Origin: an uncultured Desulfospira sp.
Lineage (GTDB): Bacteria; Desulfobacterota; Desulfobacteria; Desulfobacterales; Desulfobacteraceae
Length of the DNA: 64,000 nt
Reading direction: 5' to 3'
Assembly (NCBI GenBank): GCA_963663165.1
Contig: OY760175.1
Coordinates: forward strand, 800,001 to 864,000
Each line of letters starts with the position of its first letter. Position 1 is the stretch's first letter. Under the pieces are notes generated by a model. The model was not told where the DNA came from and did no database searches. It saw only the letters and a program-made list of their open reading frames with translations. Made by a program: the position numbers and the translations under genes. Below, in pieces: positions 632 to 9,885 of this stretch.

Positions 632-3600
632 TTAGAATATATTTTCATAGCCAAAGATTTGCGCGGTTTCCCCGCAGATTTCCCAAAGCCGTTGTTTCAT
701 CTGCCCGGTCCAGTCGTTGGGAACGGCAAAACTGCCGGTCTGCTGGGCATTTAATTTTTTCTTTAGCACTTCATCCACCTGTTGGGCAGCAATTTCTTTT
801 AATCCTAAAAATTCGGATAATGCAAATAGAACCTGAGGTTTTTCAACCATGTCTTCAAACGTTAGGAGAAACACGTTTTCCTGTCCCAGGACGGGAAGCT
901 GCATTAAAATAAAGGTATAGGTTTTGTTCCACAGCCAGCAGACCTTTTCAAACTGGCTTAGGCTGTTCCAATCAGATAACGCCATTTCATCTTCCATGGG
1001 CCTTAACCGCCCCGTGTCCCAGGGATGGCCGTTATAATAATTTCGCCTCATCCCGGACCGGACAAAATCCCAGGGGTTGCGGATCAAAACGACAAATTTG
1101 GCATCCGGTATATCTTTGGCAATGATATCGCAAAAAGGCGTCATGTTGTGGTCTGTCTCGCCGTGAATCAGGCCGTTAGACCATGTGTTGTACATGAACT
1201 GTCCCCTGCCCCGCCAGAAGACATCCCTTCGTAGATCCTGGTTATCTCTTTGGCAATACGCCTCAAAAGTTTCATTGACCAGAAAAGGCAAGGGGTGGTG
1301 CCATACCCTGGCATTGGACGCCATGTCAAGCAGATGGGACAGGGTCTGGGTGCCGCACCGGCCCCCGGACAGGGTAAAAAAGGCGTTGCCGTACGGTTTG
1401 GCTGTTTCATGATACTTGCCGTAAACCGCCTGGGGCGAAGGCCCTTCTATGGCGGTGATACAATTTTGGACAGCGGACAGCACCCTGGATTCAGTTCCCT
1501 TTTCCAATAGATGGGGCATCATATAGTAGTACGGCGAAACCGCAGACTCGTACCCCCCCTCTTCAATGATGCGGTCATCGGGCAGATAACAATACAACCC
1601 GTTGGTATAGCCAAGGATAAACGTCTGGTCAGGGGAGCGGGTCAGGGCTTTCAGCTTCATCCCAAGTTGTGTTACCGGTTCTGCCGGAAAAGTAACCCAT
1701 GTAACGGTATTGCCAAGGGTTATCACCTGAACCTCAAGGGCAAGGGCGTTGGGATACTGTCCTGAAGGATAGGTGGCCGTAAGCCTTGTGGCCCATTCCC
1801 TTACAATAAAATCCGAATCCGGGTTGTTTTTCAAAGATTCTATGGTTGCTGCCGGCGGGATCGGCTTTAACGGCAGGAGCATTTTCTCTTTGGTGCAGCA
1901 AAGTCCCGATTGGGTTAATAAGGACAGCTGGTCATGCTCAAGAAACGGCAGGACCTGCTGTGCGGCTTTCTGGCCGTTTTTTTCGGCATCGGCCACTGAG
2001 GAGCAAAATACAGGCCGGTTCTCCTGTGCGGCATCCAAGGCACCGGCTTTAATATCGCCGGCCGCGCCTTGAAGGTACATCACATGGGCCACTTTCCCGG
2101 TCTGGATCAACGCCTGTCTTAAATATCCGGGAAAATCGGCAAAAATAACACTGGCATTGCCAATGCTGGTGGGATGACAGCCATGGTTGAGCAACAGTAT
2201 CCGCCTTTGGCTGTTAAGCCCTTCAACTAAAAGAAACGGCGCACTGGTGTCATACTCGCCCTTTTCATTGGGTTGGAACTTAACCTGCCCGTCCTGTTTG
2301 AGCCTGCGGTTAATACCGATATCCACCCCGCTGGCCTTTCCCGAGTAAATTTGGGATGGTTCAAGGGCATCATACATCGGCCCAAGGGACTGGGTGATCA
2401 GCTGCATAACGTCCCGGGCATAATTCTGATGAAACGGCCCAAGGGTCTGGGACGCATTGGATACAGTCCCGGGTGCATAATGGGTATGGGATGCATTTAG
2501 AATAATGGCTTCAGGGGGAATGGCCCAGTCTGCGGCAGCCTTTACGACCCCGTCAACCATTGGTTTGCCGAACCCGAACAGGTCTGCGCTCACAATCAGG
2601 AGCTTGGCGCCCTTATCATCTTCAATGAGCAGCATCTGCATTTTAAGGGGGGTGGCCACCTGGACGGCGTTGCGCACTCCCCCGGCCATTCCCTGGAGTG
2701 CCACCGGCTGCGCCTCACTGGCCTTGGGAGTGATATCCACTTCTTTAAAAGCCGTCTTATATAAAGGTGTGGTCTTTTCCTTGCCTGCACAATGATCTAT
2801 TTGGGGATCCGGGGTGCAGGATTCCTTTCCTGATGCCGAATATGGCAATGATTCTCGTTCAAGGGCGCCGGCCATATCCCTGCACAAGGTTGAAACCATC
2901 TGCCCTTTCCTGTTTTGGACCAATTTTTCACCAATGAGGCGATAACCCTTGGCCAGGTCGGCATTGGTATCCAGAGCCGTAATCTGCCCTTGGAGCTCGC
3001 GTTCAAAAAGAACCAGGGTTAAATCCAGAAAGAATTTCCAAAGGTTTTTGCCCAACATAAAGTTGGCCAGAATAACCGCGTCCTGAGTTGGGATGGCCTG
3101 ATAACTGTCCATGGTATCCAGATAACGCCCGGCCACACCTTCGAACATCGCTTCAGATGTTTCATCGCCATCGGTTTGGTGAATTTCCTGATCCTTTAAA
3201 TAAAAGAGGAGAAAAGACAACACCAGTTTATGGTTGCCGGGATGAATTTTTTCAAGATGATTCAGCAAAAAGGACGCCACCGGTTCAAGGGATTCAAAAG
3301 CTTCTTTCTGTTCAAGGGCCTTGAACAGCTCTCTTTGAAAGCCCGGCTTGTCCAGCATCCGGTCTTTACAATCTTCCCACACCGCTGAAAACCGCTCAAA
3401 TGATTCAGTGGATACCAGACCGGCCATGAGCCAGAAATAAACCGTGGTTTCAGCACTTTTAGACGTGGTGAAGACAAACCTTGTGCCGGCCCGGGCCGCA
3501 TCGTTCCTGAATTCATCCACCACCCTGAAATAATTTTGCCCGCCTTCAACGCAAAGGTCCAGCCGGCCAGAAAAATATCCCACTGCGGCAAGTTCATAGT

Positions 3601-4444
3601 AAAGATCCACTTCATCCGGGAGGACTTCAAGCCCTTTGCGGACAGCGGCCACAGCCTGGTCATACTGGCTTAATTTTAGATGGGCGCTGGCCATGCCGTA
3701 GTAAAGAGAATAGTAAAAAGAGGCCTCAATCGGTTGAAGGCCCTTTTGTTCTATGAGTTCAAGGCAGCGAGCGGCATATTGGATGGCCTTTTCCTTCTCG
3801 TCCATTTCCGAGTGGACCTGGAACAGGTAAAAATAGGCATCAAAATCATTGGGGTCCTGTTCGATTCGCTTAAAGAGCAGGCCGCTGGTCCGCCTGTATT
3901 TGGCCTGCATCTGTTCATCAGACAGGGCATACCCGTAATGAAACAGCTCAAGCTTCAGGTGCCCGGCCTTGCCAGAATACGACAGCCGATTGTGAACAAT
4001 CCCGACATATTTGATCCCCACGCGATTTCTAAATATCCGGATGGATTCCGTTGCCGACGTAATGCCCCCCTTCCGGTTCTTATCCAGCACTTTGATCAGA
4101 TAACAGTTTAAATCTTTAGGGGCCTTGGCCAGCAAGGCTTTAAACTCATTTTTTTTAAGCTGGTATGCGTTGAGTTCTTCATCGGCGTCAATTAGAAGAA
4201 TCCAGTCGCCGGTGGCATATGAAAGGGATTGGTTCCGGTGTTTGCTGAAATTATTTTCCCAGGGGTGGTGGTAAATCTTTGCGCCAAAGGATTGCGCGAT
4301 TTCAACGGTCTTATCGGTAGATCCGGTATCCACAATGATGAGTTCGTCAATGAGGTGTTTGATGCTGTTCAGGCATCTTGGCAGCATCTCTTCTTCGTTT
4401 TTGACCATCATGCAAGCTGAAATTTTAATGCCGTTTTTTTTCAT
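632..4444 (-). CDS. Multidomain protein: GT2 glycosyltransferase + TPR + neutral/alkaline ceramidase-like hydrolase + sulfotransferase
   Basis: N-term SACMMVKNEEEMLPRCL..DTGSTD..IDADE..HYGY (GT2-TPR type); middle NASHTHYAP, HGCHPTS, LQGAAGD, PAEP, GYTNG..YLP..GGYE (ceramidase-like); C-term SGGRCGTQTL and RNPWDFVRS (5'-PSB and 3'-PB PAPS motifs). Confidence 0.8.
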   Translation of the reverse strand: MKKNGIKISACMMVKNEEEMLPRCLNSIKHLIDELIIVDTGSTDKTVEIAQSFGAKIYHHPWENNFSKHRNQSLSYATGDWILLIDADEELNAYQLKKNEFKALLAKAPKDLNCYLIKVLDKNRKGGITSATESIRIFRNRVGIKYVGIVHNRLSYSGKAGHLKLELFHYGYALSDEQMQAKYRRTSGLLFKRIEQDPNDFDAYFYLFQVHSEMDEKEKAIQYAARCLELIEQKGLQPIEASFYYSLYYGMASAHLKLSQYDQAVAAVRKGLEVLPDEVDLYYELAAVGYFSGRLDLCVEGGQNYFRVVDEFRNDAARAGTRFVFTTSKSAETTVYFWLMAGLVSTESFERFSAVWEDCKDRMLDKPGFQRELFKALEQKEAFESLEPVASFLLNHLEKIHPGNHKLVLSFLLFYLKDQEIHQTDGDETSEAMFEGVAGRYLDTMDSYQAIPTQDAVILANFMLGKNLWKFFLDLTLVLFERELQGQITALDTNADLAKGYRLIGEKLVQNRKGQMVSTLCRDMAGALERESLPYSASGKESCTPDPQIDHCAGKEKTTPLYKTAFKEVDITPKASEAQPVALQGMAGGVRNAVQVATPLKMQMLLIEDDKGAKLLIVSADLFGFGKPMVDGVVKAAADWAIPPEAIILNASHTHYAPGTVSNASQTLGPFHQNYARDVMQLITQSLGPMYDALEPSQIYSGKASGVDIGINRRLKQDGQVKFQPNEKGEYDTSAPFLLVEGLNSQRRILLLNHGCHPTSIGNASVIFADFPGYLRQALIQTGKVAHVMYLQGAAGDIKAGALDAAQENRPVFCSSVADAEKNGQKAAQQVLPFLEHDQLSLLTQSGLCCTKEKMLLPLKPIPPAATIESLKNNPDSDFIVREWATRLTATYPSGQYPNALALEVQVITLGNTVTWVTFPAEPVTQLGMKLKALTRSPDQTFILGYTNGLYCYLPDDRIIEEGGYESAVSPYYYMMPHLLEKGTESRVLSAVQNCITAIEGPSPQAVYGKYHETAKPYGNAFFTLSGGRCGTQTLSHLLDMASNARVWHHPLPFLVNETFEAYCQRDNQDLRRDVFWRGRGQFMYNTWSNGLIHGETDHNMTPFCDIIAKDIPDAKFVVLIRNPWDFVRSGMRRNYYNGHPWDTGRLRPMEDEMALSDWNSLSQFEKVCWLWNKTYTFILMQLPVLGQENVFLLTFEDMVEKPQVLFALSEFLGLKEIAAQQVDEVLKKKLNAQQTGSFAVPNDWTGQMKQRLWEICGETAQIFGYENIF

Positions 4445-4634
4445 AATTATCTCAATTTCTATTCGAGACCAGAGGTCTCAAGCCCCTTTTTTAGATTGAA
4501 TATATTTTTGAAACGATACCGTTAATAGCCGGTTGTTCTTAAAGAAAATGGCCTCGTGCCGGATCAATTGTTAATGCCAGTACTGGTTAAAGATACTGCC
4601 AGAGCTTAACATAAAAATCAAGTATTTCTGGGGT

Positions 4635-4739
4635 GGGGCGGGCCACGATAACCGATTGACATTAAAGAATAATGGCGTAAAATAAAGGTTAAAAACACGC
4701 TTAATCGACTGTTTTTATGCCCAAAACACTCATTTAAGG
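4635..4739. repeat. Left RAYT-flanking repeat (inverted relative to 7004-7113)
   Basis: Reverse complement of 4635-4663 matches 7084-7112 at 22/29 positions; inner TAAAAACACGCTTAATCGACTGTTTTT resembles the reverse complement of 7031-7056. Confidence 0.65.
4656..4683 (+). promoter_or_regulatory. Sigma-70-type promoter for the RAYT gene
   Basis: TTGACA-16 nt-TAAAAT about 65 bp upstream of ATG 4748. Confidence 0.55.
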
Positions 4740-4857
4740 ACCTTTCAATGGCCCGAGCAAAAAGGCATTTCATCCCTGGTCATATCTGGCATATAACCCA
4801 TCGCTGCCATAAACGGGCCTTTCTTTTCAAATTTGCAAAGGACCGCGACCGGTTTAT

Positions 4858-5443
4858 TGTTTCTGTAAAAGGTTAAAACCCCCGCCTTTAGGCGGGTAGC
4901 ATTTTGCCAGTAGTTGTTTTATAGTGCTTTACATGAGCTATCGGCAAAACAGTCATACGAAGTTCAAAATAGAGTATCACTTTGTTTGGGTAACCAAATA
5001 CCGATATCACGTATTGCAGGGGGATGTTGCATTGCGAGTCAGAGAACTCGTACGCCAAACTTGTGAAAGGTTCGAAATCCACATTTTGCGTGGAGTTGTA
5101 AGCAAAGATCACGTTCACATCCTGGTTTCGGCACCACCGAACATTTCTCCTTCGGATATAATGCGTCGGATCAAAGGCCGAGTGTCTCGAAAAGTGTTTG
5201 AGGAATTTCCTCATTTGAAGAAACGGTATTGGGGCAAGCATTTTTGGGCCCGTGGGTATTTTTGTGTGACCGTTGGGGAGTTGACAAAGGAAATGATTCA
5301 GGAATATCTCGAACATCATTTTGAAAAAGACCCTAATGACCATTTTGATGTAGAGTGACGCATTTCAACCGGCTATTGCCGGTATCGCTGGACTTTCAGT
5401 CCGCGCTCTTAAACCCACCGGCTTTAAGCCGGTGGTTGTTTAG
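4858..5443 (+). mobile_element. IS200/IS605-family element (tnpA only, 586 bp)
   Basis: Subterminal hairpins CCCGCC-TTTA-GGCGGG (4881-4896) and CCACCGGCT-TTA-AGCCGGTGG (~5415-5435), both preceded by AAAC; no terminal IRs; inserted 3' of TTAT; boundary ambiguous by 2 nt. Confidence 0.9.
4933..5358 (+). CDS. tnpA: IS200-family Y1 transposase
   Basis: YHFVWVTKYR, DHVHIL (HUH), IKGRVSR, FWARGYFC, catalytic Tyr in IQEYLE. Confidence 0.95.
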   Translation: MSYRQNSHTKFKIEYHFVWVTKYRYHVLQGDVALRVRELVRQTCERFEIHILRGVVSKDHVHILVSAPPNISPSDIMRRIKGRVSRKVFEEFPHLKKRYWGKHFWARGYFCVTVGELTKEMIQEYLEHHFEKDPNDHFDVE

Positions 5444-6111
5444 TGAATGGCTGTATCAGGCCAAAAAACGTTACAACCGGTTAAGCGTGTTGGATTACAT
5501 GGTTACCTCCAACCACATTCATCTGCTTGTCTCAGATGCCGGCGGCCAAAATGTAATCCCGGATTCTATCAAACTGATGGCCGGAAGAACCGGACAGGAA
5601 TACAATATAAGAAAGCGCCGGCAAGGGGCATTCTGGCAGGACCGGTATCATGCCACTGCTGTGGAAAGCACCCGCCATTTACGCCGGTGCATCACTTATA
5701 TCGATTTAAACATGGTCCGCGCCGGTGCCGTTGATCATCCTGGAAACTGGAAATGGTGCGGATACAACGAAATACAGAATCCCAGGACCAGAAAGTCAAT
5801 TATCGATTTTAAGCGTCTCATGGGGTTGCTGGGATTTGACACCTATGAACAATTAAAAGACGCTCATACTGAATGGATCGATAAAGCCATCCGGGAAAAG
5901 AGAAACGATAGAGAGCCAGAATGGTCACAGGCCATTGCCGTTGGCAGTGAAGACTATATTAAAAAGGTTAAAAAAGCGCTTGGGTTTAAAGCCAAAGGGC
6001 GAAAAATCCGCGAGTCCGGCGAGGCTTTTGAAATTAGGCAGGAGATAGCTCCATATGAAGTCCCGGACAAAGATCAACCAGGCAATCACATTTTATGGGA
6101 TACCTGAAGGG

Positions 6112-6152
6112 CAGGCTTAATCGGCCCTTTTTCAATGGCCCGATCCTGACCC
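6112..6152. repeat. Partial copy of the RAYT-flanking repeat
   Basis: CAGGCTTAATCGGCCCTTTTTCAATGGC is a near-direct repeat of 7004-7030 CAGGCTTAATCGAGCCTTTTCAATAGC. Confidence 0.65.
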
Positions 6153-6181
6153 GAGAAAGAAATAAGGCACCGGCTGGATGC

Positions 6182-6529
6182 TCAGGGCAAATCCGTGACC
6201 AGTTTCAATCCAAGGCAAACCTGGTCAAACCTTTCCTTTGACAGGGTGCCGATTTTTTCTTTTAGGCTGAGTTTATCGACTGTTTTTATCTGGGTCATGT
6301 TAATCACAGAAGGTTTTGGTAGATTTGCTTCGCCTTTATGAAGACGGACGTTCCCTGGTAAGTCACCGAATTTCAAGGTAGAGGTAATGGCAATAACGAT
6401 AACCGTATTCAATTTACTGTCATTGAGTAAATCATTCTGAACAACAAGACCGGGGCGTCTTCCCATAGGTTCTGATCCTTTTGCCGGAGAAAAATCCACC
6501 CAGTATACGGACCCTTTCCGGATTACCAT
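6182..6529 (-). CDS. mazF: Type II TA toxin, PemK/MazF family endoribonuclease
   Basis: VYWVDFSPAKGSEPMGRRPGLVVQNDLLN..TVIVIAITS..LPKPSVINMTQIKTVDK. Confidence 0.92.
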   Translation of the reverse strand: MVIRKGSVYWVDFSPAKGSEPMGRRPGLVVQNDLLNDSKLNTVIVIAITSTLKFGDLPGNVRLHKGEANLPKPSVINMTQIKTVDKLSLKEKIGTLSKERFDQVCLGLKLVTDLP

Positions 6530-6777
6530 TCCTGGCCTTCCTCAGTGCTGCCACTCTCAAACCACCGGGTAAAATTGATCTGTTATTTTTGAATGGTCTT
6601 GTCTGAAAAGACGTGGTCATATGCATCCCGGATCTGTTGTTCTTTTTCAAATTTTATTTTTTCCCTAAGGACCAGAGAGATAAATTTACTTCTGGAAAGT
6701 CCTTTCCGGGAGCTGATCTCGTTGATCATGTCCACGAGGTCTTTAGGCATAGTAATGGCTATTTTCTGGGTATTCAT
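6523..6777 (-). pseudogene. Ribbon-helix-helix (CopG-like) antitoxin with internal TAA at codon 65
   Basis: MNTQKIAITMPKDLVDMINEIS..LSRSKFI; after TAA at 6583-6585 the frame continues QINFTRWFESGSTEEGQEW to a TAA overlapping the first codons of the toxin. Confidence 0.75.
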
Positions 6778-6808
6778 TTATTTTATCCTCTATTGGTATG
6801 ATGATAAC

Positions 6809-6837
6809 AGAATACTTATTAATCCGAACTGCGTCAA
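6809..6837 (-). promoter_or_regulatory. Sigma-70-type promoter of the TA operon
   Basis: TTGACG-17 nt-TATTCT, followed by GAGGA RBS. Confidence 0.6.
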
Positions 6838-7003
6838 CGTGAAATTTAGGTGTGGTCTTGCTTGCGAAGTTGTGGGGGGGGGGATTGATAAGGATTGATG
6901 AATAGTTTGAGGGGCAGGCTGGAAATCGCCGATTAAATAACAGTTCAGGGATATTTCTGTGCAAGAGGTAAAAAGCAACCCTCTACTGTTTTTCACCTAA
7001 GGC

Positions 7004-7152
7004 CAGGCTTAATCGAGCCTTTTCAATAGCAAAAAGGGTCGATTAAGCGCTTTTTAGCCCTCAAATTCGACCCTTTTTTCTAAAATTTCAGTATGTTGCC
7101 GTGGCCCGACCCCGGATCAATTCAGTATGTTGCCGTGGCCCGACCCCGGATC
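7004..7152. repeat. Right RAYT-flanking repeat: hairpin plus tandemly duplicated 32-bp terminus
   Basis: GCTTAATCGA..TCGATTAAGC hairpin (7007-7048); TTCAGTATGTTGCCGTGGCCCGACCCCGGATC exact at 7087-7118 and 7121-7152. Confidence 0.8.
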
Positions 7153-7169
7153 GCTCGCGGACAAGCGAT

Positions 7170-7793
7170 TTATGACCGTTTTCTGTTGTTAATTCTCAAA
7201 AGAGCGATAATTCCGCCACCTAGAAGCAAAAAGGAGGAGGGTACAGGGATGGCAGATCCGACATCAAGAGACTCAGGATCATAGGTCAAATTGCCATTTG
7301 ATAACAGCTCTTCCCCATAAGTAGTATTATAGTTTTGATCATTAACACCAAAATTTCCATAAGTATAGTAAAAATAAATATCTTGCTTACCATCTTTTTT
7401 CAGATCGCTCGAATAACTAATGTCAAAAGACGCTATCACGAATCCATCGGTGAGAACTCCACCACCAAAAGTCATCGCTGTTATATTACTGATCATATTT
7501 GGAGTGCCTGCTGAATCGTCTGCAGGGGTATCCACAGCGGGTCCCATAGCAGCGCTGTAGCCAGAAGGTTGATAAACCGTAAAGCTGGTTATATCAATAG
7601 TGGATTCATATCCGATAAAAAGGCTGTAGCTAGGAATAGACGACACATCACCTTCATCTGATAGAAATGTTAAGTTAACCGTGTCTTCATCCACAAAAGA
7701 TAGATCAAAGGACCACGAGGCGAACACATTGCTAGCGCAAAAGAGGCTGACAATCATCACCATAAATATCAAATAGTTTTTTTTCTTTTCCAA
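7170..7793 (-). CDS. Secreted PEP-CTERM-like sorting-domain protein, possibly cohesin-like
   Basis: Signal peptide (..SNVFA); C-term IPVPSSFLLLGGGIIALLRINNRKRS = Pro motif + TM helix + basic tail; beta-rich acidic body. Confidence 0.75.
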   Translation of the reverse strand: MEKKKNYLIFMVMIVSLFCASNVFASWSFDLSFVDEDTVNLTFLSDEGDVSSIPSYSLFIGYESTIDITSFTVYQPSGYSAAMGPAVDTPADDSAGTPNMISNITAMTFGGGVLTDGFVIASFDISYSSDLKKDGKQDIYFYYTYGNFGVNDQNYNTTYGEELLSNGNLTYDPESLDVGSAIPVPSSFLLLGGGIIALLRINNRKRS

Positions 7794-7816
7794 TTTAATT
7801 CTCCTTATATTTTAAT

Positions 7817-8575
7817 TCAATTGCAACTTTTCAGCCAATTCTTTTGTACTAAACCAAGGTCACCAATATTGACCCAACCATCGCCGTTGAGGTCCGCATT
7901 TGGATTCGAAATGTCTGAACCTTGTTTTAACCAGTCTTTTTGTACTGCTCCAAGGTCGGCAATGTTTACATTTCCATCTAAATTAACATCACCTTCTATG
8001 TAGCAAACAATTGTTGGTTCATCAAAATTCAATCGTTCTGTGTTGTCCAAAGGATCTCCGTCATTGGTACAAAAATTGACGTAATCACCGTCTTTTCCCA
8101 ACTCAACACTAATGGTTGGGGCTACTTCGGTATCTATTCTTTCAAAAACAACTGTGCCTAACAGGACCTTACTTCCAGCTACGCCATCGGTAGGGGAGTT
8201 TTCATCAATTTTCCCTCCGATAATTACAACTGCCCCCTCTGTTGATGTATCCGGATCAATGTAGGGATATTTCGTACCATCTGCTGTTCCAAAATACCAG
8301 TCTGTTTCATTTTTTGTAGCGGCTATTGTAGCAGCATTCAACTCTTCTGGTAAATAAGTAACTTTTACCCCATAACTGACCAACGGCTCAACAGCACTCC
8401 CATCAACACCAAATGATTCCGTAGTATCTGCATAAACCTTAAGTGTCAGTTCAGTGTCAGTATAGGTCCCTTCTGTAGAAATGTTTACATCAGTAAACCC
8501 AGAACCGCACATCAAAACAAGCAGAATCGGCAATGCCAGCAGCATCCCTTTAAACTTGCCTATTCCTTTAACCAT
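7817..8575 (-). CDS. Secreted protein with cohesin-like domain and C-terminal type I dockerin
   Basis: Signal peptide; duplicated Ca-binding repeats GDVNLDGNVNIADL and ADLNGDGWVNIGDL; cohesin-like pattern SYGVKVTY..G..LLGTVVF. Confidence 0.75.
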   Translation of the reverse strand: MVKGIGKFKGMLLALPILLVLMCGSGFTDVNISTEGTYTDTELTLKVYADTTESFGVDGSAVEPLVSYGVKVTYLPEELNAATIAATKNETDWYFGTADGTKYPYIDPDTSTEGAVVIIGGKIDENSPTDGVAGSKVLLGTVVFERIDTEVAPTISVELGKDGDYVNFCTNDGDPLDNTERLNFDEPTIVCYIEGDVNLDGNVNIADLGAVQKDWLKQGSDISNPNADLNGDGWVNIGDLGLVQKNWLKSCN

Positions 8576-8666
8576 TTTCCCCCCCTGTTGTTGCTTTGAA
8601 TAAATTTTGTATGGACAATTAAAAATCGTTACAGCTTTCGTCAAATCTTTATGCCATTTCTAAGTT

Positions 8667-8682
8667 TGCAACAACCGTACCT
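8667..8682 (-). promoter_or_regulatory. Sigma-54 (-24/-12) promoter
   Basis: AGGTACGGTTGTTGCA: GG-N10-GC, about 90 bp upstream of the dockerin gene. Confidence 0.6.
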
Positions 8683-8818
8683 AAGCACATAGGACAAAAC
8701 AAAAAACGACATAAATCTTTGATTGTTATATTTTCTTTTATTACCAGGCACTTAAATAATCCATAGCCAATAAAAATCCACAGAAGTTTTTTTCCGGTTT
8801 CCTGCCGCAATTGGCTTT

Positions 8819-8880
8819 TGTGAAAAAATGTTCATAACATTGAGAAGTTTTTTTCCTATGATTGTGAACTTTTTGTAACA
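8819..8880. promoter_or_regulatory. Candidate enhancer-binding-protein sites
   Basis: TGT-N12-ATA (8819-8836) and TGT-N12-ACA (8863-8880), 140-200 bp upstream of the sigma-54 site. Confidence 0.45.
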
Positions 8881-9020
8881 TTTTTTCCGGTCAGCAGTGC
8901 TTGAAGTTTGCCCCGGGTTTCCGGTCCGGGAAGCCTTAGTTAACCCTGGATATAGATCATTTGTTCGATATCAGACTTTGGGCGTTTGGTCAACCTTAAT
9001 TTCAGGGCAAATTCAATATA

Positions 9021-9077
9021 GCGGACTAAAAAGCCCTTAATCGACCCTTTTGGGTGCCAAAAACATGCGATTAAGAC
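9021..9077. repeat. Further copy of the RAYT-flanking repeat core
   Basis: CTAAAAAGCCCTTAATCGACCCTTTT..CGATTAAG, nearly identical to the reverse complement of 7032-7057. Confidence 0.65.
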
Positions 9078-9676
9078 TATCTTCCTGTTTCCGGGCCCGT
9101 TTTGAATTCAACATTCAAGTAAATTTCAGACAAATTCAGCTCACAGTTAACAGATTCTATTTTCACGCATTGTTCTTCTTTATCGTACAATTTGTAATGC
9201 CAAATGTCTTTGGTGCGGACATATTGTTCCACTGAATATTCGTATTGTGAAACCAGAATGTATTCTTTCAGGGTTGATACCTGCTGGTAGGCTTTAAATT
9301 TTTTTCCTCTATCATAACTTTCAGTAGATTCAGATAATATTTCCATAATGACAGCAGGGTTTATTAGGGTGTCAAATTCGTTGTCTTCAAATTCAGGTTC
9401 GCCACAATATATTACAATGTCCGGATAGACGTATTTATCTTCAATCTTTACACGCATATCATTAGAGAGAGGGCTACATGGGGATTTCGAACCTTTTAGT
9501 TTCATTCCTAACTCTCTTATGAGATTTACATTAATCTGGTTGTGAGTGAATTTTGCACCTACCATGGCAAATATTTCACCGTCATAAAATTCGTGTTTAA
9601 TATCCAGGGAACTTCTTTCCATTTCCAGATATTCAGAAGGTGTCATTTTACTTTTTTCTTGTGGGTGTGCAGTCAT
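9077..9676 (-). CDS. Uma2 family (DUF820) PD-(D/E)xK endonuclease-like protein
   Basis: KHEFYDGEIFAMVG, YVYPDIVIYC, EILSESTESYDRGKKF, LKEYILVSQ. Confidence 0.92.
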   Translation of the reverse strand: MTAHPQEKSKMTPSEYLEMERSSLDIKHEFYDGEIFAMVGAKFTHNQINVNLIRELGMKLKGSKSPCSPLSNDMRVKIEDKYVYPDIVIYCGEPEFEDNEFDTLINPAVIMEILSESTESYDRGKKFKAYQQVSTLKEYILVSQYEYSVEQYVRTKDIWHYKLYDKEEQCVKIESVNCELNLSEIYLNVEFKTGPETGR

Positions 9677-9677
9677 G

Positions 9678-9885
9678 TCATGATTCCTCAAGTGCAGCCT
9701 GCAAATATACCCGGATCATTTCCGGGGAATCAAGGTATTCACTGACATCAAATTCCCTTGTGGTGACCTTCTTTGTAAATCCAAAGATAGTCAATGCGCG
9801 ACAAAAAACGGGTTTTGAAGTTTTTATCTTTAATCCCGGCAAACCATTTATCAAGGGCTTTTGTCGTTTGAATTTCATATGTCAT
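9678..9885 (-). pseudogene. Collapsed addiction-module remnant (RelE-like killer N-terminus + antidote N-terminus)
   Basis: 9885-9748 MTYEIQTTKALDKWFAGIKDKNFKTRFLSRID (HI1419-type toxin start); other frame KVTTREFDVSEYLDSPEMIRVYLQAALEE (HI1420-type antitoxin start); both truncated. Confidence 0.7.

Follow-up and report, generated by a model that had tools for sequence, protein, structure and literature searches.

A decayed TIRtron and its dispersed, tip-duplicated ends among variable accessory genes of an uncultured Desulfospira

We analyzed a 64,000-nucleotide stretch of DNA from an uncultured Desulfospira sp. (the window; positions 800,001 to 864,000, forward strand, of contig OY760175.1 in assembly GCA_963663165.1), in which a gene for a RAYT, a tyrosine transposase associated with repetitive extragenic palindromic (REP) sequences, lies among repeats that separate toxin-antitoxin and surface-protein genes. 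The unit is a TIRtron (or TIRYT), in which a Y1 HUH transposase gene is placed between inverted 107-bp ends (terminal inverted repeats [TIRs]), and the window copy is decayed. The ends have a sharp boundary 5 to 8 nt outside their tip, carry nested tip duplications, and lack a target duplication; the cargo between repeats and its order vary between strains, and the arrays are rich in toxin-antitoxin genes. From the known chemistry of HUH enzymes, we think that the TIRtron enzyme probably nicks just outside the tip and joins the tip to other DNA ends, accumulating cassettes between outward-facing tips.

TIRtrons were described by Di Nocera in 2013 (PMC3733652) and are equated with TnpA-Y1 subclass 2.1 in PMC6006769 and with RAYT group 1 of PMC5581495, the largest RAYT group. 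The original prediction, made from the letters of the window, had proposed a RAYT-linked system distinct from those characterized. The feature is real, but it is of a known yet barely studied kind, and our literature search found no biochemistry on RAYT group 1.

The transposase and its inverted ends

The RAYT gene (4748-6107, + strand) is split after TTTAT by a nested IS200-family element (4858-5443, +; tnpA at 4924-5358; ends ambiguous by 1 nt), which leaves a 5′ part of 37 codons (4748-4858, +) and a 3′ part (5445-6107, +) containing the HUH motif (NHIH) and the catalytic tyrosine (YIDLNM). The nested element has the subterminal hairpins and guide-directed target choice of IS200/IS605 elements and is absent from read contigs X3 and X6 and from G001, a relative with ~90% identity at the locus that we compared at orthologous sites. 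The predicted RAYT is thus present and flanked by its own clade's repeats, but it is not intact; the window's transposase is a pseudogene, and the events at the window were probably made earlier or in trans. A second paralog (genome positions 4910635-4911432) has inverted repeat copies on both sides and an Arg at an otherwise invariant Trp. The nested IS200 is itself short, with tnpA only, and three copies 99.8% identical to one another are present in the genome, each after TTTAT.

Among 30 homologs, the two HUH histidines (H61 and H63) and Tyr122 are invariant, and the alignment has NHIH and W[QE], with NM in place of NP. The transposase matches PF01797, and also NF047646 with an E value of 4e-19 that is nonetheless under that model's cut-off. 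A structure model built from the 30-sequence alignment (pLDDT 85), used instead of a single-sequence prediction (pLDDT 37), has E. coli TnpA-REP (4ER8) as its best Foldseek match and a predicted helical folded tail, in which Pfam finds no helix-turn-helix (HTH). In alignment A3, Cys20, His21, Cys119, His106, and His135 are invariant besides the HUH residues, a set that could form an extra metal site in this clade.

The association of the gene with its ends extends well beyond the window. A search with the intact G001 protein gave 132 relatives, the best 80 of which (78 loci) were kept; 66 loci have enough flanking sequence, a set that contains the locus of the query itself, L053/L057 as a duplicated pair, and L116/L117 from a single contig. 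The repeat lies upstream of the gene in 48 of these 66 loci, an inverted copy lies downstream in 51, and both are present in 40. Among 60 other genomes of the same order, at least two exact tips occur in 13 of the 15 that carry the gene, compared with 7 of the 45 that lack it (Fisher p 1e-6; related genomes are not independent). The predicted tie between the repeats and this RAYT clade is therefore borne out, whereas the proposal that cargo travels inside the inverted ends is not: the ends are tight around the gene in 39 of the 40 loci with both, so cargo is rarely inside, and only L113 has ~1 kb there. Cargo lies instead between outward-facing tips. Nor are these RAYTs single-copy and fixed: near-identical whole elements (92-99.9% identity) are multi-copy in L116/L117, G002, and G062, with either side ending at roughly -5 to -9, and their contexts vary (nine shared flank pairs among 131 flanks).

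The repeat is 107 bp long, starting with the tip GGGGTCGG(A/G)CC and ending in a loose CTTAA..TTAAG palindrome. Using a hidden Markov model built from genome copies, we found 57 non-overlapping copies at 29 loci in the 6.74-Mb genome holding the window (G000) and none in the reversed genome; the repeat is thus not confined to the cassette array. G001 has 52 matches, overlaps included. The family occurs as whole elements, mini-elements of 235-270 bp, and single ends. We examined 172 termini with the tip GGGGTCGG[AG]CC, which is one position off the published GGGGWSAS and has no GTAG in its consensus; only an exact match to this pattern is informative, the one-mismatch version being no more frequent than in the reversed control.

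The repeat has strong A/T phasing at 10.5-11 bp (autocorrelation 0.51 at lag 11), which suggests that its bound form may be a bent duplex and not a hairpin. The predicted end hairpins are not conserved: seven of ten TIRs fold no better than shuffled sequences, only the 7008-7113 type folds strongly, and the folded TIRs have no conserved attC-like single-strand fold. Target-site duplications are absent with 5-mers (0/27), and matching 4-mers (7/27; control 2.5) have no constant offset; tRNA genes are associated with 2 of the 29 loci (null 1.8). Guide pairing of the flank pentamer with the repeat interior was considered and rejected, there being no flank/internal covariation (best z 3.1 among 1260 tests). 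A putative sigma70-like promoter in the left end (4656-4683; 11/12 matches) is directed at the transposase; it is only suggestive, because relatives' upstream and downstream ends match the -35 box within one mismatch at 14/35 and 11/41, respectively.

Four other RAYT genes in the genome (G000:C1 3023500, 4888200, 4834900, and 4421500) each have their own family of GGGG-tipped ends with tip duplications, and in one case the tip lies right against a PEP-CTERM-like gene, at its stop codon. Hybrid mini-elements of ~130 bp, with one end of the family studied here and one from another TIR family, lie at G000:C1 913000, 1225445, 1245771, and 1246273, within RHS toxin-immunity regions. At G000:C1 1366168-1367904, a reverse-transcriptase-like open reading frame, presumably of the group II intron type, abuts a repeat without its first 11 nt.

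Tip boundaries, scars, and variable cargo

Many tips carry a scar that we refer to as stutter, in which the five bases outside the tip are repeated further out, mixed with truncated repeat starts. Stutter occurs at 26 of 43 G000 tips, and twice or more at 16 of 43, compared with random expectations of 5.9% and 0.3% and with 7/43 and 0/43 at the inner end; it is also found at 44 of 115 tips in relatives and at the tips of the other G000 RAYT families. None was seen at a control motif (0/28), most copies of which are internal to one repeated element. The stutter units begin 5 to 8 nt outside the tip in 125 of 150 cases, and sibling TIRs in different contexts have 4 to 7 flank nucleotides in common in 82 of 147 pairs (191 of 16,894 non-sibling pairs; 1.1%). 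The same boundary is evident between strains, with G000/G001 homology breaking at most 13 nt outside the tip in all of 10 hand-chosen pairs, against a crude background of 0.01 per 15 nt; in one example a 356-nt indel lies at the pentamer, and in another stutter has grown by 117 nt with the oldest pentamer farthest out. Three paralog pairings were left out of this count, as were six identical TIRs in stretch L134, because the matching read contigs have a depth of ~13 compared with ~123 for the main strain. Tip-anchored duplications range from 34 bp to 1.63 kb; they would be compatible with one-ended read-through into adjacent DNA, as in IS91 and ISCR elements, but homologous recombination can amplify such units. 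In L134:3996-19901, a G001 block is 99.9% identical to G000 amid 90% flanks, and read depth suggests that it is a minor-strain chimera or a recent transfer.

At the window locus, the left 107-bp TIR (4634-4738, +) has its tip outermost, preceded by the flank pentamer and one stutter unit (4624-4633, +; G001 has ~130 nt extra here with several stutter units, and there is a loose end at 4624). Downstream of the transposase are an internally deleted right TIR (6112-6152, -), its inner arm fused to the tip and the tip facing mazEF; mazF of the PemK family (6182-6529, -); and a mazE-like antitoxin gene (6523-6777, -) with a premature stop at codon 65. A stutter-like scar with a second copy of the transposase stop region after it (6873-6920, +) differs in a minor allele (joint 6880->7004); the scar may represent a decayed forward tip. 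Next come a full right TIR (7008-7113, -; 93% identity to the G001 right TIR) with the pentamer and a 34-nt tip duplication (7114-7152, -), genes for a cohesin-like PEP-CTERM surface protein (7170-7793, -) and a dockerin protein (7817-8644, -), and a forward TIR (8994-9075, +) that lost its tip through a microhomology deletion. The four repeat copies listed in the original prediction are all there, and the 22/29 inverted match between the 4635 and 7084 termini is exact, although the parts proved less regular than it had supposed. The 6112 and 7004 copies said to bracket mazEF as direct repeats are present, but the former is the deleted inverted TIR, and mazEF lies between its tip and the 6873-6920 scar. 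Repeats do stand on both sides of the supposed cohesin/dockerin pair, but the 9021 copy is a forward one without a tip, and the 7170-7793 protein has no Pfam cohesin match; it has a PEP-CTERM tail (PF07589, E 0.021, under the cut-off), and the Atlas clusters closest to it consist of PEP-CTERM and cohesin/PEP-CTERM proteins. Not every module boundary coincides with a repeat, as had been stated: some, two of them in the window, are microhomology deletions or belong to other mobile elements. The PEP-CTERM/dockerin pair lies between two outward-facing tips, and mazEF between a decayed right end and the putative decayed forward tip; this cargo is therefore outside the element ends, not inside.

The predicted variation in gene content, with empty-site alleles, is borne out by G001 and by read contigs. 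The orthologous site of G001 has an intact transposase between tight ends and neither mazEF, which occurs TIR-free elsewhere in G001, nor the nested IS200. There is a different PEP-CTERM gene that resembles the window's only in its sorting tail, and both genes end 4 to 18 nt from the tip array; the dockerin gene shares its 5′ part (81% DNA identity), the 3′ part being replaced, and the last repeat is intact with stutter and followed by an AbiEi/AbiEii pair. Read contigs from two studies have the same empty alleles plus a third, minor one. Over one array, read contigs reveal alleles with their joint at the pentamer, another allele that is 9 kb shorter, and shuffled cassette order.

Cassette-like arrays, as originally predicted, occur in G000, in read contigs, and in G060. 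Neighboring G000 repeats share an orientation in 21 of 28 cases, and toxin-antitoxin, AAA_14-DUF4143, PEP-CTERM, and RHS genes lie between repeats; of 54 PemK, PIN, or ParE toxin genes, 12 are no more than 1.5 kb from a TIR (null 0.95), and a toxin gene is near 30% of TIRs, compared with 7.7% of low-GC windows. The clearest array is in G060, which is a best case and not typical, because it was picked as the genome with the most tips (30). Here eight segments of 710-1009 bp alternate with a 264-bp mini-element (82-95% identity, in one orientation; single ends form two of the separators). The segments are HEPN/MNT, MNT, HigBA, BrnTA, HigBA, FitAB-like VapBC, a transposase gene, and VapBC. Seven of these eight consecutive segments are toxin-antitoxin modules, and the remaining one is the transposase gene stripped of its own ends. 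Both HigBA modules have repeat-free homologs in a genus relative, such that three presumably captured modules, including the window's mazEF, have TIR-free homologs elsewhere. Smaller array cases occur in G031 and G033.

Several further observations concern these loci. The mazE stop removes the last 20 residues, mazF looks intact, and contigs of run X1 have identical letters. A Uma2-family gene (9077-9691, -) lies beside the last TIR in the window, and another is beside a TIR at genome position 1380688. Upstream, window positions 632-4444 (-) encode a 1270-aa glycosyltransferase-TPR-ceramidase-like-sulfotransferase fusion, of which the G001 counterpart has 950 aa, with DNA homology limited to the 5′ 1.6 kb in the compared stretch. 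Two long mini-element arrays in G060 (C1:3813681-3827200 [L159] and 3756415-3780885 [L160 and L161]) alternate with toxin-antitoxin, nucleotidyltransferase, GmrSD, and polysaccharide genes. DUF218 genes adjoin tips next to polysaccharide genes both in G001, whose copies have G000 homologs, and in the distant G060 (G000:C1 558751-561210, L132, and L159:13637-14290). RHS genes or their 5′ fragments begin directly behind a repeat four times in G000:C1 1778184-1814250, which suggests tip-anchored duplication of 6-kb units; the G001 stretches L150 and L151, taken as RHS-array orthologs by guessed synteny, were rejected.

Candidate mechanism and alternatives

HUH enzymes form a 5′-phosphotyrosine and a 3′-OH, and in PMC3333891 a nick-extend-reseal model (model 7B) is put forward for amplification of bacterial interspersed mosaic elements (BIMEs). 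By analogy, the TIRtron enzyme would nick one strand 5 to 8 nt outside the GGGG tip, leaving the 5′-phosphotyrosine on the element and the 3′-OH on the flank. Extension of this 3′-OH and resealing would give tip duplications of anything between 5 nt and more than 1 kb, and joining to a distant 3′-OH would move the element, delete adjacent DNA, or trap a foreign fragment between two tips. Accessory genes would then pile up and swap between outward-facing tips, and toxin-antitoxin modules would likely be over-represented because they resist loss. More tentatively, and with some doubt on our part, TIRYT enzymes, as Y1 HUH proteins, could drive an integrase-free platform for gene capture, with activated tips ligated to the free 3′-OH of almost any DNA. 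Arrays of toxin-antitoxin, defense, polymorphic-toxin, and surface-protein genes would grow and reshuffle as a counterpart of integrons across several phyla, and the stutter would be a dated record of activity.

There is much to weigh against capture by the enzyme. Cleavage and joining at the element end are predictions from HUH chemistry, repeats alone permit swaps by homologous recombination, and both G000 gene copies may be inactive. The comparison with G001 involves a mixed-strain assembly, and the repeat and flank pairs that we counted overlap and are not independent. The association with cargo is also partial: 42 of 54 toxin genes are not near a TIR, a listed cargo family is nearby at only 10 of 29 loci, PEP-CTERM genes are not significantly enriched near TIRs (4/62, p 0.057), and toxin genes are not enriched at the other TIR families (3/54). 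The elements could instead be passive litter, with TIRtrons and mini-elements hopping into AT-rich variable islands and the enzyme moving only its own ends and leaving scars; genes would arrive via insertion sequences (ISs), integrases, or transformation, the repeats would serve as recombination anchors, and toxin-antitoxin genes would survive by addiction. Several findings favor this account at the expense of capture. The neighbors of related elements are diverse (of 119, about 10 are toxin-antitoxin or defense genes and the others are metabolic, transposases, or unnamed), and elements in G002 flank metabolic blocks. Five of the 10 hand-chosen pairs have a homology break near the inner end (+98 to +125) as well, 72% of TIRs lie in low-GC windows, and the AbiE pair and last tip were lost in the window through 3- to 5-nt microhomology deletions. 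Furthermore, the edges of six TIR-bearing islands differing between G000 and G001 lie elsewhere than at tips, and one of these islands has a 186-bp tRNA-linked duplication. An insertion of HigBA plus a TIR in L130 resembled a tip event but was not counted as one, because of the 186-bp duplication beside a tRNA. We nonetheless judge the litter account rather unlikely, given the excess of toxin genes near TIRs over that in low-GC windows, the two unrelated PEP-CTERM genes that end at the same tip array, and the one-to-one alternation of mini-elements and modules in G060, with an end-stripped transposase gene between two tips, an arrangement that requires every segment to have a tip junction at either edge.

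Two other arrangements fare worse. The tips at 4634 and 7113 do bracket RAYT plus mazEF as though outer inverted repeats enclosed a transposase and cargo that move as a unit, and both the ~1 kb inside the L113 ends and a 1.63-kb tandem unit in L117, made up of the element and downstream DNA, are compatible with such a transposon. It is improbable, however, because the ends leave cargo no space in 39 of 40 relatives and the genome has no second copy of the RAYT-mazEF block; moreover, the orthologous G001 element lacks mazEF, and the block therefore did not arrive as a unit. In the other arrangement, a tyrosine or serine recombinase with its gene elsewhere would use the repeat as an att site and cross over within the inner CTTAA..TTAAG palindrome, and the RAYT would be a passenger. 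Such a system would fit the common orientation of neighboring repeats (21/28), the inner-end breaks, the shuffled order, and the cassette-like placement of the G060 RAYT. We regard it as very improbable, in that genes of this RAYT clade and the repeat occur together, with the repeat on the gene's flanks, the scars are at the tip and not the palindrome, no attC-like fold is conserved, and no recombinase is among the 11 proteins scanned around the locus.

If capture by the TIRtron enzyme does occur, it would add a new way of building accessory-gene arrays to those offered by integrons and rolling-circle elements. With a predicted cut site 5 to 8 nt outside a defined tip, an intact enzyme with two ends (L013:6757-7758; homolog at 6872-7642), and natural arrays in G060, which are the best substrate for further study, the question of what RAYT-like enzymes do becomes directly testable.

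Relation to known systems

TIRtrons (PMC3733652) agree with the elements described here in several respects: a Y1 HUH gene stands between long, GGGG-tipped inverted repeats, which are also dispersed as single copies, pairs, and clusters; there is a long C-terminal tail; and occurrence in deltaproteobacteria is common. The tip here is GGGGTCGG, in contrast to the published GGGGWSAS, which is common to some but not all TIRs (PMC3733652), and the ends here are 107 bp with phased A/T tracts. Subclass 2.1 is characterized by NHxH, W[EQ], Y--NP, and an HTH-like tail (PMC6006769), whereas the tyrosine motif here is YIDLNM. We found no description of cargo, arrays, tip scars, or mechanism in the parts of the TIRtron literature consulted, nor of cargo arrays or tip scars of such elements in a wider survey of titles and the beginnings of abstracts, which covered few subscription journals.

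REPtrons (REP-RAYT groups 2 and 3, including E. coli TnpA-REP; PMC3333891 and PMC8266576) have the same fold and chemistry, and the nick-extend-reseal amplification model proposed for them (PMC3333891) fits the tip duplications seen here. Unlike REPtrons, the elements here have no GTAG-footed hairpins and no guide pairing that we could find. Whole elements are present in several copies and in different contexts; E. coli REPtrons, by contrast, reportedly do not move as a unit. In IMU, gene units flanked by miniature inverted-repeat transposable elements (PMC3184786), non-coding mini-elements of similar size likewise flank genes and are moved in trans, but IMU ends are of the IS type and its target duplication is 5 bp long, whereas here there is no target duplication and the arrays are long. 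IS200/IS605 elements differ in that the TIRs here lack guide covariation and a conserved hairpin.

IS91 and ISCR elements encode an HUH enzyme and have ori and ter ends, one of them sharp, with capture of adjacent DNA and no target duplication. The HUH enzyme, the single sharp end, the absence of a target duplication, and the capture of adjacent DNA that we propose are alike in both systems, but the enzyme here is a small Y1 protein of the IS200/RAYT fold and the two ends are similar and inverted. Integrons are oriented arrays of small, repeat-separated modules that are rich in toxin-antitoxin genes and variable in content and order. No tyrosine recombinase of the integrase type is among the 11 window proteins or the scanned G060 array proteins, a scan that was not genome-wide; the junctions here are nested duplications rather than precise crossovers, cargo genes lie in both orientations, and there is no attC-like fold. 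What these arrays share with integrons is an oriented series of cassettes whose content and order vary.

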